Of a DNA stretch of 64,000 nt, positions 45,601 through 52,348 are shown piece by piece (the stretch's first letter is position 1; every line of letters begins with the position of its first letter). A program made the translations under genes and the position numbers. The DNA is taken from the NCBI GenBank assembly GCA_026026165.1, contig JAPEUD010000031.1, positions 1 to 64,000 of the forward strand, written 5' to 3'. The notes under the pieces were generated by a model. The model worked only from the letters and a program-made list of their open reading frames with translations, ran no database searches and was not told the DNA's origin. Origin of the DNA: Sarea resinae (lineage: Eukaryota).

Positions 45601-48278
45601 TAGGGGTTGCGATATGAAATCGAAGGATCCTCTCTCCTGGATGTACTCTGAGTAGAGAGTATTCGTACTCGGGCGAGTCAGGTACGACGATGCCGATGAT
45701 GGGCTGGCTCCGGAGTACCTTCATACACGCGTACGTACTTCGTACCTACTCTGTACATCTTTCCTCGAAGGAGCAAATACGAAGATCCCACGGACTGCGG
45801 CCCCCCTTACGACGTCCGTCGATACGTCTTCGTCCATCGATGAAGCCATCGGCCCACGGCCATATCATTGGAGACCCTAAGGTACGACACAGGCTTGGTC
45901 TACCAACCCCACGGTGTGCGCTGGTGGCAGGGTTTGGTGCAGGGACTGGCCGAGCAGGTCACGTAGAAGTACACCGGAGGCGTGTGATGGTCCACTTCAA
46001 GGTCGTGGAAAGGCAAATATTGAACGGATCCATGGATGGACGTCCATCAATTCTGCGCGTATCGTAGCACGGGCACATCGCTTGGCCTCCCGCTGGTACC
46101 ACGCCGTCCGTCCCGTCCCATGTCTGGCAGCAGGCAATGGACCGGAGCAGACCAGCTTCCAAGTGTATCTACTCTATCCATGAATACTCGACTCTACTAC
46201 GTACAGCATCAGCAAGCAACCTGAACCCAGCGACGCCGCATTCTCGGTGCCTGCAAGCCCGACGGCACTAGAGAGACGACGGGCTCTCCGCTTCCAACTA
46301 GCCACCACGCCAGTTGCGTCGCCGGTCGTCTTGCATATGTAACGGCAATGGCACTGGGACTGGTGTCCCCATGGATGTCCGGACATTTGGGATTGGCTCG
46401 CGCTGCAGACATGCAGCCAGACACATGGGTACGGGGTCCGGCAACAGCGAAGCGTCCGCTGCAATCACATTGTCCAAGCCCACATATCCGTCGGTGAACC
46501 GAAGATCATGGCCCGTTGCGGGGGGAAGCCCTCCGACAGATTGGTGCTGAAGTGACCACAAATAATGAAACGCTCTTCACCTGGGCGCCCTGTGCCGTAA
46601 CTTTGTAATGGAGTAGAGTACACTCTCCATGTCAGGGCAAAGACCGGTACAGGAGGGCAGTTAACTTGGTCAGTGTAGATCGGGCCAATCTACAGAGGCA
46701 CCTCTTCAGGTCCCGTCAATCAATCTGGACTGATCAGGGTGCATGAGGATTTATGTTCTGTGTTTCGTGCTCCTCCCTAGGAAAAGTGCATTGCTCTACT
46801 GCGAAGCTTCCACCGGGCTCTAACATTGAATGTTTTGGTCTTCCCGCTAGATCTGCCTGTCGATCCTCGCGCGAAACGGTGTCTTCTTCACGCCCTCTTC
46901 CGGCGCAGGCCAAAGCAGCGTCATTGGATGATGATGGCAAGCGCGAATCACGAGCACCTCGTCCATCAAATGCCGTCGCTATGCGCTTTATGCATCCCTC
47001 TTTAATTTATCCCCCTGAACGCCCTCTGGCACACCACAGAGCTGGAGGTTGCTTGCAAATTCCGTCACCGCCCGTACTTCTCGGACACCATGTACTCGGA
47101 GTACTATGCGATGCATCGGGCATGTATGTACACCTCACCTCGTCCACCTACTCGTACATACTCGGCCGCGTACAAAGTCGTAGATTGGGAAAGCAGGGTA
47201 TGGCGCTGCAAGGCAGGGTTTGCGACAGCCGAAGCATCCTCCCCCAGCCCGCTCATTTGCTGCTCCGACAGTCCGATGATGCACTTCCACCAGAAGGACC
47301 ACCAGTACTACCAGTACCGGCTGTTCCAGAATGCTCGAGAGCTGCTCTCTTCGTCAGAGGCTAAGCCAAATGAAGCTACGGAGGGCAATTGGGTCCTTCG
47401 GGAAGCCCTTGCGGTGAACGACACACACGCGCTCTCTTCTCTCGATGACTCCCGTGTACGATTATTCACAGCTCTAGAATGGTGCCATGGCACTGGCAGA
47501 TCGAGCTGGTATGTGCTCGGAGAGGTACTACTGCTACACTTGCTACGTGGTAACATCTGCTCATACCTACATGCTCAAATGGTATCCTTTCGATCTGTTG
47601 GATTCACATGAAGCTCTGAAAGGGCAGCTATACGAGGGCGTAGATCTCGGCGTGGTGCGGCTAGCAAAGGCCAGGCAAGGGTTTCCGTCGAAGAGGAATT
47701 GGAGGTTGCTTAGGGTCTGCTTTCCACCTCTACGATGTAGGTAGGCGTGTACTCCGTACGGCGTAGTCCCGGTACCTCATATCGAGCCATACTTCATACA
47801 CACGAGTGAGTACTTCCACCTTATTCGAGACGGCGGCACACATGGAATCCTTGGCTTGAAGGCTTGACGGGGGCGGGCGGGTTGGTGGTTGGTGGCCCAT
47901 GACGGCATGGACCGTGGGGTACCTGCTGGGACGAACCTGGAAGCCAAGAGGGAAAGGAAGAGCTGGCCGGGTCGAGTCCAGGAGTGTCCAGTGGAACGGT
48001 ATGGTAAGATATAGGTTGGATCTACAGTGCTACTACGGCGTCCTGAGCTTACCAAGGCGTGCCCACTGCGGTCCATGTACTGGATCATCACGATCATGGC
48101 GGTAGTTGGACGAAGACAGAGCACCCGTCAGGAGCACGGAGAGTGCCTCTCGAGGGTGATCATCATTGATACCTTTCGGGCCTTGCTGACCGTCCCTCGA
48201 ATGCGGAATAGTCACCGAAGATCGTCCTTTATCATCCATCACCTACGAGCCCAGTGTTGTACCGACGGCGACTATCCG

Positions 48279-49121: not shown

Positions 49122-49282
49122 ATGTCTGGAGCTACTGTTCGGTGAGACGAACGGCTACCGTTCCTTCCTTGACCGGGGTCCCTGCTTCGATACCTCATCT
49201 TGCAGCTAGCTATGAAGCACTGTGTGCTGACCCTTTCCTGCTGCCTCGACTCTGCAGCGGAGATTCACACAATCAACTTTGA
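49122..49282 (+). promoter_or_regulatory. Candidate spliced upstream ORF (MSGATVRGDSHNQL*) in the bZIP leader
   Basis: ATG 49122; donor GTGAGA 49142; branch GCTGAC 49226; acceptor TGCAG ending 49257; TGA 49280-49282. Confidence 0.5.
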
Positions 49283-49331
49283 ACTTCACCAAAGGTCTCT
49301 GGCCTCGTGTCTGTTTGCCTAAACCGTCACC

Positions 49332-51125
49332 GTGGCTGCATCACCGTTTGTCGCTTGTTCCACGCCGAACCCTTTTGGTGGCTTTCCAGGCCCGTATCAG
49401 CTTGACTATCTGGAACAACCTCGTCACATCAAATTCGATACCACTTACTCTCTCCCTCAACTGCGACTCCCCGAGGAGCAAAGTCGCCGAGGGGGAGGGG
49501 GCAAACGTCAATGTAACAACTCACGAGACTCGATTTGCGTCGAGGACGAGCGCCCTATGTCGCAGAGGGCCTCTGTGCCCGGTCCCGCTGCCAGCTCGAC
49601 ACGAGATGATCCTAGCATCTCCCCTCGATCCACGACTGCACCAGCTCCATCTCAGTCACGGCCTGCTCAAGGCCAGGCACAAGAGAGATCACAGGAGACC
49701 GGAGACCGAAGAGCAAGAGCACCTGGAGATGGAACCCCCTCTGTGACAGTGTCGCCGGCGGCACAGGCGAGCTCAAGCAACGCAGCGAGCTTCTCACAGC
49801 AAAGACCCTCACGCTTGATTGGGGTTCACTCCATACTGAACCCCACCAATCCCGAAGTGCCCGAAGTGGCAGGCCGGCGGCGAAGTGCGGCACACTTCGA
49901 CACGTCTCCGTTCGAAGCGGCATCGAGGAGGCAATCTTTGCCCGCCAATGACCCGGCCTCGATAGCTCGTGAACCAGGGCCCGAGAGGACGCCGCCTTCT
50001 GCGGTAGCCTTTCCCGCAGGCACAGGTCAGGCTCCAAGGCGTATCTTGACGCCTCTGTCTCCAGCAGCAAGACGGACGGCAAGCTTGGGGCGAGTCCATG
50101 TGCCGCTGGCAACCATCGATGCTCGCAATTCTCCTTTTTTGTCTCCAAAGAGTAGCCGGAATTTGACGGCGGAGACTGGGTCTGCTAGGTCCGAGATGCC
50201 GCGGGTCCCTAGTCCTCCGTCGCGGCCGACTTTCCATTATTCTCTCCCGTCGGTTGCGTCTGGTCCTTTGCATATACGGCGGGAAAGTGGAGGAGCCCCT
50301 CCGGGATTGCTTTCACAGAGTGCAAGCCCTAGCACCTCTTACTCCTCTTTCAGTCAGGCCAGCATCGCATCCCCGGCCCCTCAGCATGGCTTTCTGCCCT
50401 TGCAACCGGGTCTGTCGTTCAGCGCCCCAGGAAGCGGGGAGTCTCACGGCCATGGAGAAAATCGCTTTGGTGCATCCGGACAAGGCAACATCCAGCTGAT
50501 GACGCTCGAGACGGATCAGGGTCCTATACAGGTACCCGTGGATGTACAAGCGGCGTCAAAGGTCGCAGACGAGAAGCGTCGGCGTAACGCTGGGGCCTCG
50601 GCTCGATTCAGGCAAAGACGAAAGGAAAAGGAACGAGAGTCGTCGCAGACAATCGCCAAGCTGGAACAGCGGCTCCGGGACTCTGCCGAGGACACGGAAT
50701 TCTATCGACGCGAACGAGACTACTTTCGACAGCTGCTGCTCAGCTTACCGGGACAAGGCCAGATTGCACCCCGACCACCCTCGCCACGTCTTCGGCGATC
50801 GTCGGTAACGCCCACGACTAGTTCCGTCGGACGACAATGGCAGGAAGCCGATGAACTCGACGAGATGGAGATGAACGTGCGGCGAAGTACCAGTGCTTAC
50901 TCGTATTCCTTTCCACCTGCGTCCGTGGGTTCGATGCCATCGCTGTCTCAGCCATACGGCCCGCTAACTCCATTGCAACCTCCAACCGAGAATCGGCCTT
51001 CTCCTAACAGCTTACCTCCTATGCCCAGTGGACCTCCTCCGCCGTCCAGAGGCAGTGGTCCCTTTGATCCCTATGGGGCCGAAAGATACGGTCGAGCATG
51101 GCCTCCAAATCGAGGCCCGCGATAG
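49332..51125 (+). CDS. bZIP transcription factor; candidate GUG start at 49332, first AUG at 49557
   Basis: GPIQVPVDVQAASKVADEKRRRNAGASARFRQRRKEKERE basic region followed by a heptad zipper; single long ORF. The start position is inferred. Confidence 0.9.
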   Translation: MAASPFVACSTPNPFGGFPGPYQLDYLEQPRHIKFDTTYSLPQLRLPEEQSRRGGGGKRQCNNSRDSICVEDERPMSQRASVPGPAASSTRDDPSISPRSTTAPAPSQSRPAQGQAQERSQETGDRRARAPGDGTPSVTVSPAAQASSSNAASFSQQRPSRLIGVHSILNPTNPEVPEVAGRRRSAAHFDTSPFEAASRRQSLPANDPASIAREPGPERTPPSAVAFPAGTGQAPRRILTPLSPAARRTASLGRVHVPLATIDARNSPFLSPKSSRNLTAETGSARSEMPRVPSPPSRPTFHYSLPSVASGPLHIRRESGGAPPGLLSQSASPSTSYSSFSQASIASPAPQHGFLPLQPGLSFSAPGSGESHGHGENRFGASGQGNIQLMTLETDQGPIQVPVDVQAASKVADEKRRRNAGASARFRQRRKEKERESSQTIAKLEQRLRDSAEDTEFYRRERDYFRQLLLSLPGQGQIAPRPPSPRLRRSSVTPTTSSVGRQWQEADELDEMEMNVRRSTSAYSYSFPPASVGSMPSLSQPYGPLTPLQPPTENRPSPNSLPPMPSGPPPPSRGSGPFDPYGAERYGRAWPPNRGPR

Positions 51126-52348
51126 GCAGACACTCTAATTTGCCACACATACGTACTCCTGGAACTCAGCTCGCAAAGCACTGCATCTCCAGCTCTCGCA
51201 ATACCATCACATTCCATGCATTCTCCCTGTTACAGGCTATCCGGCGTTACATTTTTGGGACATAGATCAAGCAAGCAATCATCATCTTCATCACCCTTTC
51301 ATTTACGGTCTTGTCTCCGACCAAACGATCAAATCAGTCGTTCCATCTTCCAGTCCGTTCAGTCGTTCTACAAATCGTGTCCATTGCAAAGCGTCGTTTC
51401 TTTTTTCAGTTCGTTTCTTTCTTTTCTGAATATATACCCCCGGGTGGCATCGTGATCCTTGGTTTTTCCTGTTGTTCCCAGCAGTCAGTTCATTCGCTCA
51501 AGATTTCTCGCGCAGCTCTTTTTCTCGACAGATTGTAAAGGTAGGGGAAGGGGGACGGAGAAAGGCGCATTGATGACTTGTAAAGGATGATTGATTGATC
51601 AAAACGGGCTCTCTCATCTCCTTTTCGTTGGTGCTGGAAGACTTGGGCGGCTGGAACTTCATCCTTCACCCTTTACACTATACTATACATATACCAACTG
51701 GATTAAAACATGTCTCCGCTACGATTGCGTCCCCTTTTTCCCATTGCTTGCTGCCTGGCAGACAGACAGACAGACAGACAGACAACCAGAATGTGTACAT
51801 TATATACCTACCTACCTTAGCTACCCTAGCTCTCTAGCGCAACGGCCGTGGTGGCTGGCGGTGGCGATAATGGCGTTTCTTTTGGATCATCCCATTCCCA
51901 TTCCCATTCGCCGCTCATACCACTACTGCTGCACCTGCTCTCTTTCCCGCTCGGTCCTTCTCTTTTTTGGCTGCCTATTCTCGCAACTTGCCCCTTTCGT
52001 TTTTGACTCTTCTCTATACCCGGAGCCCGGAGGCGTTGATTCTCGTATATACATTTGATTGTTCCTGTTCGCTTTCTTGGCTGTCGTTTTTTTTTTTTTT
52101 TTTGGAGGGGGGGAGTTTCTTTCTTGAGTGCTCGTGCTCGGCGCCACTAGTGTCGGGTGCATGCGATGTCCCTGGACTGGTCTACGCCTGGGCCTCACTC
52201 ACTAGCTTACGGACTCACTGGCTCACCGGCTCACCGACTCGCCAGCTAGCTAGCTGGCTGGGCTTTTTTCACCTATAGATAGATAGAAGATGAGAGATAA
52301 GACGTCGTTCGCGCGACGCGATGGAATCGGCAGGGGGCTGACTTTCCC

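Follow-up and report, generated by a model that had tools for sequence, protein, structure and literature searches.

Near-cognate initiation on a fungal bZIP mRNA is best approached through cpc-1 of Neurospora crassa, which encodes the GCN4 homologue CPC1 and for which a conserved N-terminal extension initiated at near-cognate codons has been described (Ivanov et al. 2017, mBio, PMC5487733); the parts of that paper dealing with cpc-1 give a dN/dS of 0.348 for the extension. A CUG start has also been proposed for the bZIP proteins IDI-4 of Podospora anserina, ZIP-1 (NCU08055) of N. crassa and JlbA of Aspergillus, in the sections of PMC5487733 and PMC10241597 that concern them. Here, we examined a 64,000-nucleotide stretch of Sarea resinae DNA (referred to below as the window) carrying a bZIP gene that, judging from its sequence and that of its relatives, is very probably translated from a conserved GUG located 75 codons 5' of the annotated AUG. 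The gene should thus also give rise to a longer protein, one overlooked by standard annotation.

The proposed initiation site (49323..49335, forward strand, as for all features below) reads ACCGTCACC GTG G, with the GTG at 49332-49334. Around this codon, position -3 is A, positions -4, -2 and -1 are C, and G occupies both -6 and +4. An in-frame TAA stop (49320-49322) lies three codons 5' of this GTG and is followed directly by ACCGTCACC, in agreement with the coordinates reported in an earlier note on this DNA. From 49323, the main frame is open as far as the TAG at 51123-51125, and its first in-frame ATG is the annotated one (49557..49559, MSQRAS...), which sits in the weak context CGCCCT-ATG-TC (C at -3, T at +4). 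The 75 open codons that the earlier note had placed ahead of this poorly situated ATG (CCT-ATG-T) are therefore present. They span 49332..49556 and encode an N-terminal extension (VAASPFVACSTPNPF...DERP) that is predicted to be disordered, and within them GTG 49332 is the sole in-frame near-cognate codon to combine a purine at -3 with G at +4. The annotated main ORF (49557..51125) encodes 522 amino acids, and the database protein of the gene (P0003, 522 aa) likewise starts at ATG 49557; hence, the annotation misses the 75-codon extension, as the earlier note had anticipated. RNA matches came from one run (X1, wood-decay metatranscriptome contigs, 5% of words shared), in which contigs of a relative (approximately 95% identical) covered only 51104-51718, corresponding to the 3' untranslated region (51104..51718). 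An open 78-codon frame arose in 5.8% of composition-matched shuffles (a chance of about 0.06). Because an open frame of this kind is unremarkable by chance, the case rests on the comparison with homologues.

The encoded protein belongs to a bZIP family whose members, among the homologues listed, carry no functional name; none is called IDI-4, ZIP-1 or JlbA. Its basic region (50571..50672; residues 414-447 of P0001) was matched by the PF07716 (bZIP_2) profile across the same residues with a score of 18.5 bits (E = 0.0022), which is below the curated cut-off of 22.3, and a precomputed PF07716 match was present in several homologues among the matches listed. The bZIP signature consists of N-x7-R in the basic region, followed by a heptad hydrophobic repeat. 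Here, N419...R427 is invariant (alignment A1), and I441, L444, L448, Y458 and F465 are conserved after it, constituting an atypical, partly aromatic zipper. The domain lies roughly 130 residues before the C-terminus of the window protein, and a PDB search with the bZIP region returned no matches at E ≤ 1; the PDB contains GCN4 bZIP chains. The two features expected of a CPC1/GCN4 orthologue, a GCN4-like bZIP sequence and a C-terminal position for it, were thus not found at that threshold. The closest relative among the matches listed was 44% identical, and protein atlas clusters were labeled only 'hypothetical' or 'BZIP domain-containing'. MeaB is a candidate identity that we offer as a guess. 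A full-text literature search with the peptide 'ASARFR' recovered unrelated words only, and a search for a non-AUG start in this bZIP family recovered only cpc-1, IDI-4 and general papers. A truncated, bZIP-only form starting at the Met that precedes the bZIP was also considered, and was dropped because that Met is not invariant.

To compare start codons, we used 24 loci, including the window, collapsed to 19 lineages (<85% protein identity). A further 21 divergent or interrupted loci and 12 contig-edge loci were left out of the assessment. The aligned start codon was GTG in 18 loci and CTG in six, and ATG in none of the 24; by lineage, this corresponds to 14 with GTG, five with CTG and none of the 19 with ATG, although these counts are not fully independent, as the lineages are related. 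A purine at -3 and G at +4 accompanied the codon in all 19 lineages. Among distinct contexts, C was found at -4 in 22/22, and C at -1 and G at -6 each occurred in 20/22, giving a family context of GCC(R)CC-NTG-GC. The third base of the start codon was always G, while synonymous sites elsewhere were saturated (dS 0.3 to >1). In an unsupervised scan with a profile, covering the window and 80 loci, the extension was detected in 45; at the profile start, 40 of these showed GTG or CTG flanked by a purine at -3 and G at +4. The window, L001 and L051 have their in-frame stop three codons 5' of the start; in most other loci, the distance is 8-44 codons. In 20/24 loci, the interval between stop and start holds no in-frame ATG; in L012 and L045/L048/L050, an in-frame ATG is found 94-147 codons upstream with no stop between. 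Database proteins that span the extension begin with V or with M, and in the one M-started case with available DNA (P0182, from locus L024) the codon is GTG. NCBI models of relatives start at MSQ, are flagged partial or begin at non-conserved, far-upstream ATGs. The near-ideal GUG context on which the earlier note was built is therefore shared by orthologues (GTG or CTG in 19/19 lineages, with purine -3 and G +4), and the proposed start is conserved as a non-AUG codon.

As the earlier note had proposed, orthologues were also tested for purifying selection on the extension. The 75 residues of the window align with P0004 (45% identity, E = 9e-14), residue 1 of one pairing with residue 1 of the other, and pairwise Nei-Gojobori dN/dS estimates were 0.14-0.58 for the extension versus 0.06-0.25 for the main ORF. 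Across six independent pairs, differences at the three codon positions numbered 72/73/131 in the extension versus 32/19/29 upstream in the same frame. Indels were multiples of three in 11/15 cases in the extension versus 3/27 upstream, and in 4/4 versus 1/17 cases in pairs at ≥77% identity. By these measures, coding constraint begins at the near-cognate codon, with none 5' of it; this onset, like the anatomy of the sequence and its conservation, is directly observed. The extension varies between 56 and 79 codons in the family and keeps an N-terminal AA[ST], FPGPY, R-x-[CW] and a run into MSQ. A word-indexed protein search with residues 1-85 gave no match, and an exhaustive profile search with the extension alignment recovered only 15 representatives. 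In the L052/L053 lineage, a 1-nt deletion and an in-frame TAA interrupt the extension, and the GTG frame ends at the main ATG, so that the extension would be dispensable or lost in that lineage. AlphaFold2 predicted no fold and no secondary structure (mean pLDDT 59.6). We considered a nuclear-export-like reading (L-x3-L-x2-L-x-L) of 'SLSHLRL' and rejected it, since Dothideomycete-like loci do not keep the motif.

Between the near-cognate codon and the main AUG, the window contains one out-of-frame ATG, followed at once by TAA (49511..49516), 46 nt before the main ATG and in a weak context (T at -3). An out-of-frame ATG occurs at the aligned site in 18/19 lineages, usually 46 nt before the main ATG, and is lacking in the L006 lineage. 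The codon preceding it varies (CAA, CCA, CGA, AGA, TCA, GCA, AAA) and its last base is always A. The internal uORF that it opens ranges from 1 to 113 codons across loci, and its stop, which falls before or after the main AUG, is not conserved. The 3,915 nt of extension sequence contain 20 ATGs, 18 of which represent this one conserved site, versus 41 in equal stretches of main ORF and 26 upstream. Alignments A1 and A2 show no variation at the Met encoded by the main ATG (Met76 counting from the GTG). Position -3 of this ATG is a pyrimidine in all 19 lineages, although the residue preceding the Met varies among P, H, L, S and F.

The leader 5' of the GTG contains a short uORF of seven codons (49122..49145, ATG..TGA, MSGATVR) in a weak context (tctATGt), and a uORF of 4-19 codons is located 120-170 nt 5' of the near-cognate start in most homologous loci; the short uORF is presumably functional. 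Its TGA overlaps a candidate splice donor (GTGAGA, 49142), and a hypothetical 5'-leader intron (49142..49257) can be read from the sequence alone, with a CTGAC branch site at 49227-31 and a CAG acceptor at 49255-57. If spliced, the uORF would comprise 14 codons ending at 49282, and ATG 49212 would be removed. This ATG opens a second uORF of 36 codons in the main frame (49212..49322), in the context gctATGa (purine at -3); its stop is the TAA located 9 nt 5' of the GTG, and this uORF is not conserved in relatives. If contained in the mature leader, it would be inhibitory and could intercept many ribosomes 9 nt short of the GUG. Most relatives carry a hairpin, GGGAC(G)/(C)GTCCC, 10-18 nt 5' of the near-cognate start. 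The hairpin is absent from the window and from L001: the pattern GGGAC-N3-16-GTCCC matched the window only at 46356 (1.3 matches expected by chance), and the RNA of 49258-49400 was no more stable than shuffles (z = 0.45).

Other routes to a conserved extension deserve consideration. The extension could be coding and yet be reached by splicing from an upstream AUG exon, such as that at ATG 49122, with no non-AUG start; the GTGAGA donor following that ATG is plausible, and automated models of relatives (P0122, P0125, P0141, P0178 and P0180) join or extend to upstream ATGs. However, the N-termini of those models are not conserved with each other, and the GCC(R)CC conserved just 5' of the codon resembles a Kozak context, not an acceptor motif. 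AG dinucleotides within 49323-49420 occur only at 49388-49389 and 49399-49400. Since there is no AG from TAA 49322 to 49388, the first 19 residues, which are conserved, would be lost with any acceptor, and neither 49389 nor 49400 is in phase with the 20-nt exon, while the best-looking acceptor (CAG 49255-57) runs into the stop at 49282. In the window, the TAA three codons upstream and the lack of an AG in the following 56 nt thus make splicing from an AUG exon improbable, and the mostly frame-breaking indels 5' of the near-cognate codon (3/27 multiples of three) argue against it in the family. The statement in the earlier note that splicing does not readily explain the extension therefore holds, and we regard this route as quite unlikely. 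Readthrough of TAA 49320 from the in-frame uORF at ATG 49212 is more improbable still, to the point of being negligible: that uORF shares the main frame and has its purine at -3, but relatives have no equivalent in-frame uORF abutting the start, the upstream stop is 3 to 205 codons away among loci, and the upstream sequence is not conserved as protein. TAA is also generally the least leaky stop codon.

Two further alternatives question the role of the extension as protein. The region 5' of ATG 49557 might be an untranslated leader conserved as RNA or DNA, with an incidental open frame, an idea to which the roughly 6% chance of a 78-codon frame and the nucleotide-level hairpin element near the start in relatives lend something. 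Nonetheless, the frame is open in 19 lineages, differences concentrate at third positions, multiple-of-three indels prevail only 3' of the near-cognate codon and similarity extends to the amino acid level, making such a leader very unlikely. The GUG frame might instead be mainly regulatory, acting like an in-frame uORF that tunes AUG use, with the extended protein having no distinct function. The predicted disorder and lack of secondary structure, a constraint weaker than that on the main ORF and the broken frame of one lineage are consistent with this, whereas a dN/dS clearly <1, short motifs kept in distant lineages (FPGPY, R-x-[CW]S) and a frame still fused to the main ORF in 19 lineages are not what it predicts. 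We consider it unlikely, while giving it more weight than the other alternatives.

The explanation we favor, with a probability of about 0.8, is that this Pezizomycotina bZIP mRNA has two in-frame starts, with a long form from the GUG and a short form from an AUG reached by leaky scanning. Actual initiation, leaky scanning, the isoform ratio and its regulation are what we infer from the conserved sequence. Scanning ribosomes would reach GUG 49332 first, in its near-optimal Kozak context, and a minority would start there with Met-tRNAi, yielding a 597-aa form with the disordered 75-aa N-terminal extension. Having started at the GUG, these ribosomes would translate across the internal AUG and thus avoid it. 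Others would scan through the extension, which is kept free of AUGs except for the weak out-of-frame AUG at 49511 (AUG-UAA); this would divert part of them, and the remainder would start at the weak-context AUG 49557 to give the annotated 522-aa form. As all three starts are suboptimal in codon or context, the isoform ratio and total output should depend on start-codon stringency, as set by the eIF1/eIF5 balance and eIF2 availability. The picture drawn in the earlier note is supported, and the family comparison adds the GUG/CUG alternation, the conserved out-of-frame AUG and the hairpin, the last being a feature of most relatives and not of the window.

A broader reading, which we advance as a single and somewhat speculative proposal, somewhat short of an even chance, is that the family possesses a conserved multi-part translational switch that would predate the split of the lichen-forming and Dothideomycete-like lineages. 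From 5' to 3', it would comprise a short uORF, a hairpin (in most lineages, 10-18 nt upstream), a GUG or CUG in perfect Kozak context, an AUG-purged extension, a weak AUG lying out of frame at an almost constant 46 nt and a main AUG kept deliberately weak. Under the same proposal, the bZIP would itself report on start-codon stringency and would fix the proportion of two functionally distinct forms, as a fungal counterpart of C/EBP LAP*/LAP control, and the hairpin would be a new kind of near-cognate initiation enhancer that refolds behind the scanning complex.

If the two-start explanation is correct, the annotated protein of the window gene is without a conserved N-terminal region (56-79 residues in the family), and hundreds of orthologues in lichen-forming and Dothideomycete-like fungi, with models that are MSQ-started or flagged partial, miss the same region. 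Prokaryote-style gene callers, which allow GTG starts, would arrive by accident at the true N-terminus, which eukaryotic pipelines overlook. The stringency tuning of fungal bZIP factors is a long-discussed idea. The locus would combine a single start codon in an exact context with accessory elements that can be separated (internal out-of-frame AUG, weak main AUG, upstream hairpin), making such tuning directly testable with simple reporters.

Among described systems, C/EBP alpha and beta resemble the window gene in design. According to the portions of PMC5487733 that touch on them, and in part general background, these bZIP mRNAs have an upstream start (non-AUG or weak) for an extended isoform and a small out-of-frame uORF located between that start and the main AUG, and their isoform ratios follow the activity of initiation factors, as we propose for the window gene. 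There is no homology between the two; the length and stop of the internal uORF are not conserved in the window family (1-113 codons), and no conserved AUG further downstream that could give a truncated, bZIP-only form was found there. The IDI-4 group consists of filamentous-fungal bZIP proteins with a proposed conserved CUG start, and IDI-4 translation is sensitive to eIF2-alpha phosphorylation in the available descriptions. As described there, IDI-4 starts at CUG without an AUG start, whereas the window family keeps an invariant downstream AUG, making two forms probable. The layout of the window gene also resembles that of cpc-1, as far as the relevant sections of PMC5487733 describe it. Both are fungal bZIP mRNAs with a short upstream uORF and an annotated AUG downstream. 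They also share conserved near-cognate codons in near-optimal context, an extension under purifying selection (0.348 in CPC1, 0.14-0.58 in the window family) and an out-of-frame AUG inside the extension that near-cognate-started ribosomes bypass (in the window gene, presumably). The window gene differs in belonging to another bZIP family, without a PDB relative at E ≤ 1 and with a bZIP that is not C-terminal. By the same account of cpc-1, the window family has one conserved start (GUG/CUG) rather than several (CUG, AUU, ACG), an extension of 56-79 rather than approximately 180 codons, and weak contexts for the internal and main AUGs where the cpc-1 uAUGs are optimal; most of its members also have the upstream hairpin. 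Like CPC1, the window family combines an open frame, a conserved extension under purifying selection and a near-cognate codon at its 5' edge. Alongside cpc-1, it would be a second and cleaner example of non-AUG initiation that is deeply conserved on a fungal bZIP.

Comparison across relatives supported the earlier interpretation of GUG 49332 as a start codon, through a conserved near-cognate codon, its context, and coding constraint behind it, and we consider it likely (probability of about 0.8), on sequence grounds, that this GUG initiates a conserved N-terminal extension of the bZIP protein. The anatomy described in the earlier note was all present: an in-frame TAA at 49320-22 is followed by ACCGTCACC and by GTG at 49332-34 with G at +4, and 75 codons (49332-49556, the extension) remain open before the first in-frame ATG at 49557, which lies in the context CGCCCT-ATG-TC. 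The main frame stays open as far as TAG 51123-25. GTG 49332 is the sole in-frame near-cognate codon in the extension with both a purine at -3 and G at +4. Splicing does not readily explain the extension, as had been argued, since only two AG dinucleotides, at 49388 and 49399, occur from the TAA to 49420, and an AUG-bearing upstream exon cannot join the frame without loss of the first 19 residues. Annotation does miss it: the recorded protein (P0003, 522 aa) begins at ATG 49557. The open frame in the window alone is weak evidence (a 78-codon open frame occurred in 5.8% of composition-matched shuffles).

The product read from GTG (P0001, 597 aa) has a weak match to Pfam bZIP_2 (residues 414-447, 18.5 bits vs a cut-off of 22.3), and the basic region N419...R427 is invariant in the alignment of relatives. 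Of 8000 candidates scored in a protein database search, 848 were relatives at E ≤ 1e-3; among the best 120 of these 848, the closest had 44% identity, none carried a functional name for the family, and the named relatives were lichen-forming fungi (e.g., Candelina, Acarospora, Umbilicaria, and Xylographa). A search with the bZIP region also matched Dothideomycetes (Phyllosticta, Lasiodiplodia, and Cladosporium), and protein atlas and PDB searches returned no family name for this bZIP. Divergent related bZIP loci were also seen (L044, L061/L062, and L079, plus short-ORF loci L056-L060, L064-L077, and L080), several of which look interrupted by introns or decay. In L061, only about 48 open codons precede 'MSREP', the upstream stop reads ATG-TAA-GCT-GCC, and a VAA-type start was not seen.

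A metagenome scan yielded 80 homologous loci, and the extension was recognised in 24 including the window, some of them near-duplicates. The conserved non-AUG start that was looked for in relatives was found: the aligned codon is GTG in 18 loci, CTG in 6, and ATG in none (GTG 14 and CTG 5 when collapsed below 85% main-protein identity to 19 lineages). A purine at -3 and a G at +4 each occur in 19/19 lineages, counts that overstate independence because the lineages are related. Across 22 distinct contexts, C was found at -4 in all 22, C at -1 and G at -6 in 20 each, and C at +5 in 18, such that the start context, GCC(R)CC-NTG-GC, is the Kozak consensus. Flanking codons and V/L identity vary among lineages, whereas the constrained context bases do not. 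An unsupervised check, in which every plus-strand ORF of the window and the 80 loci was scanned with an extension HMM, matched 45 of 81 sources, and in 40 of these the first profile position fell on GTG or CTG with purine at -3 and G at +4; the remaining five comprised two with GTG and C at +4 (L048 and L049) and three partial matches (L044, L052, and L053). Sources without a match were cut by a contig end (12), divergent or interrupted (21), or recognised by eye (L016, L017, and L046, all with a GTG start). An in-frame stop precedes the start by 3 codons in the window, L001, and L051, by 8 in L037, and by 13-44 in most others. The stretch from stop to start is without an in-frame ATG in 20 of the 24 loci, the exceptions being L012 and L045/L048/L050, with in-frame ATGs 94-147 codons upstream.

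Purifying selection on the extension, for which the earlier note had proposed a check, was evident in several measures. Pairwise Nei-Gojobori dN/dS was 0.14-0.58 in the extension vs 0.06-0.25 in the main ORF, saturated pairs and the near-identical L045/L050 pair being left out of both ranges. Differences at codon positions 1/2/3 over six non-overlapping pairs numbered 72/73/131 in the extension and 32/19/29 in the in-frame stretch upstream. Indel lengths were divisible by three in 11/15 cases in the extension vs 3/27 in the 220 nt upstream (4/4 vs 1/17 in the five pairs of at least 77% identity). Coding constraint thus begins at the near-cognate codon. Moreover, the third base of that codon is G in every lineage while synonymous sites elsewhere are heavily substituted, a pattern that fits a start codon but would not be predicted for a sense codon specifying Val or Leu. 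The extension can also be lost: L052 and L053, near L051, carry a 1-nt deletion and an in-frame TAA within it, about 330 nt upstream of the main ATG. They retain the GTG and its context, and the GTG frame ends in TAATG, overlapping the main ATG; in this lineage, the extension looks to have been turned into an upstream ORF (uORF).

The N-termini of 41 related proteins illustrate that the extension is conserved, yet badly handled by annotation. NCBI eukaryote-style models mostly begin at a conserved 'MSQ' (e.g., P0007, P0010, P0015, and P0020), whereas some are flagged partial and begin upstream without Met (P0029, P0051, and P0076) and some are extended to non-conserved far-upstream ATGs (P0122, P0125, P0141, P0178, and P0180). 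Proteins from metagenome gene callers have their first residue exactly at the proposed GTG position, as V (P0004, VAAPEVS..; P0036, VAASQVF..) or M (P0005, P0011, P0013, P0030, and others), and in proteins whose frame continues through this position from upstream, V or L stands there (P0045, P0051, and P0122; P0021, P0039, P0044, and P0073). An 'M' in such records need not mean ATG, as M-started P0182 is identical to locus L024, whose DNA has GTG. The 75 residues of the window align with P0004 from residue 1 to residue 1 (45% identity, E = 9e-14), and an extension profile matched 15 proteins at E ≤ 1e-3 among 1.84 billion representatives, which start with V, start with M, or hold the region internally. 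Separately, the Saccharata proteae model P0178 has the N-terminus 'MAGDLDF...', spaced about 29 residues off from the V/L-A-A start of relatives (P0141, 'LAAPDL'); if the two are aligned, it might be a candidate lineage with ATG there.

Two further conserved elements, beyond what the earlier note had observed, are an internal out-of-frame ATG and a weak main ATG. The former occurs in 18/19 lineages (the L006 lineage is without it), 46 nt upstream of the main ATG in 17/22 loci, 43 in three, and 28, 49, and 55 in one each. The A of this ATG occupies the third position of one codon, and the TG begins the next, which encodes Cys or Trp; the codon that supplies the A is variable (CAA, CCA, CGA, AGA, TCA, GCA, and AAA), and its last base is always A, against a third-position A background of 0.32 in those codon families. 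Only in L046 does this ATG have a base other than a pyrimidine at -3. In the window, it forms a start-stop, ATG-TAA (49511-16, + strand); across lineages, the ORF it opens spans 1-113 codons. This ORF stops short of the main ATG in the window, L001, L009, L031, and L042, and continues past it in the other lineages. At the main ATG, position -3 is a pyrimidine in all 19 lineages and position +4 is T in 18 of them; the Met it encodes is invariant in alignments of relatives, and the residue before it varies (P, H, L, S, or F). With the conserved ATG set aside, 2 ATGs remain in 3915 nt of extension, compared with 41 and 26 in equal stretches of main ORF and upstream sequence. The weak main ATG, conserved internal ATG, and ATG scarcity are marks of a region that would be crossed both by ribosomes translating from the near-cognate codon and by ribosomes still scanning for the AUG.

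Upstream, the first ATG of the window has a weak context and opens a 7-codon ORF, MSGATVR (49122-49145, + strand). Most homologous loci have a uORF of 4-19 codons, placed 120-170 nt before the near-cognate start (e.g., L028, L035, and L038, where it begins 'tccgacATGa' and has 7-9 codons), and the MSGATVR uORF, at -210, may be its counterpart. A second ATG (49212, + strand, purine at -3) opens a 36-codon ORF ending 9 nt before the GUG. A candidate leader intron predicted from sequence (49142-49257, + strand; GTGAGA donor, CTGAC branch site, and CAG acceptor) would, if real, take out ATG 49212 and give a first uORF of 14 codons rather than 7. In 15 loci, the GTG/CTG start is preceded at a distance of 10-18 nt by a hairpin with a GGGAC(G)/(C)GTCCC stem and a loop of 3-9 nt (L009:3978-3994, and the corresponding position in L006, L015, L016, L022, L024, L029, L037, L038, L042, L045, L046, L051, L054, and L059). 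In the alignment of these loci, 85/90 cells pair, with two-sided changes in L022 (GGAACG/CGTTCC) and L024 (AGGACG/CGTCCT), and pairing falls to 38-52% when the partner is shifted by 1-3 columns. The spacing between hairpin and start is not divisible by three, and hence the hairpin is not coding. It is absent from 49272-49331 of the window and from L001. Possibly, it refolds behind the scanning complex, favouring the near-cognate start. Two contigs of a wood-decay metatranscriptome match 51104-51718, in the 3' UTR only; they differ from it at 14 and 10 letters and show 20 extra nt, made of TGATTGATTGATTG-like repeats, after 51587; at about 95-96% identity, they indicate a close relative in that RNA library.

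Under the proposed mechanism, part of the scanning ribosomes would initiate at GUG 49332 and make the 597-aa form, bypassing the internal AUG 49511. Others would scan past the GUG, some being diverted at the weak AUG-UAA 49511, and those left would initiate at the weak AUG 49557, giving the 522-aa form. Each start falls short of the optimum in either its codon or its context, and total output and the ratio of forms should therefore track start-codon stringency. That both forms are made and regulated seems probable, somewhat less so than GUG initiation itself. The extension is predicted to be disordered (mean pLDDT 59.6) and carries short conserved motifs.

A literature search found no description of the start site of this bZIP family. 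Podospora anserina IDI-4 and Neurospora crassa ZIP-1 are thought to start at CUG (PMC5487733, PMC10241597), and may belong to the same family; if so, a non-AUG start would already be on record as a proposal for the family, and, as far as those papers describe it, the dual-start architecture would not. The closest known system is N. crassa cpc-1, which (Ivanov et al. 2017, PMC5487733) has a short uORF, conserved near-cognate codons in near-optimal context, and an extension under purifying selection (dN/dS 0.348) with an out-of-frame uORF inside, uORF2, which ribosomes started at near-cognate codons are proposed to bypass. The two genes share the short uORF, a near-cognate start in favourable context, the constrained extension, and the internal out-of-frame AUG, whereas the present gene belongs to a different bZIP family, relies on one start site, has an extension that is shorter and two AUGs that are both in weak context, and, in its relatives, is accompanied by a hairpin.
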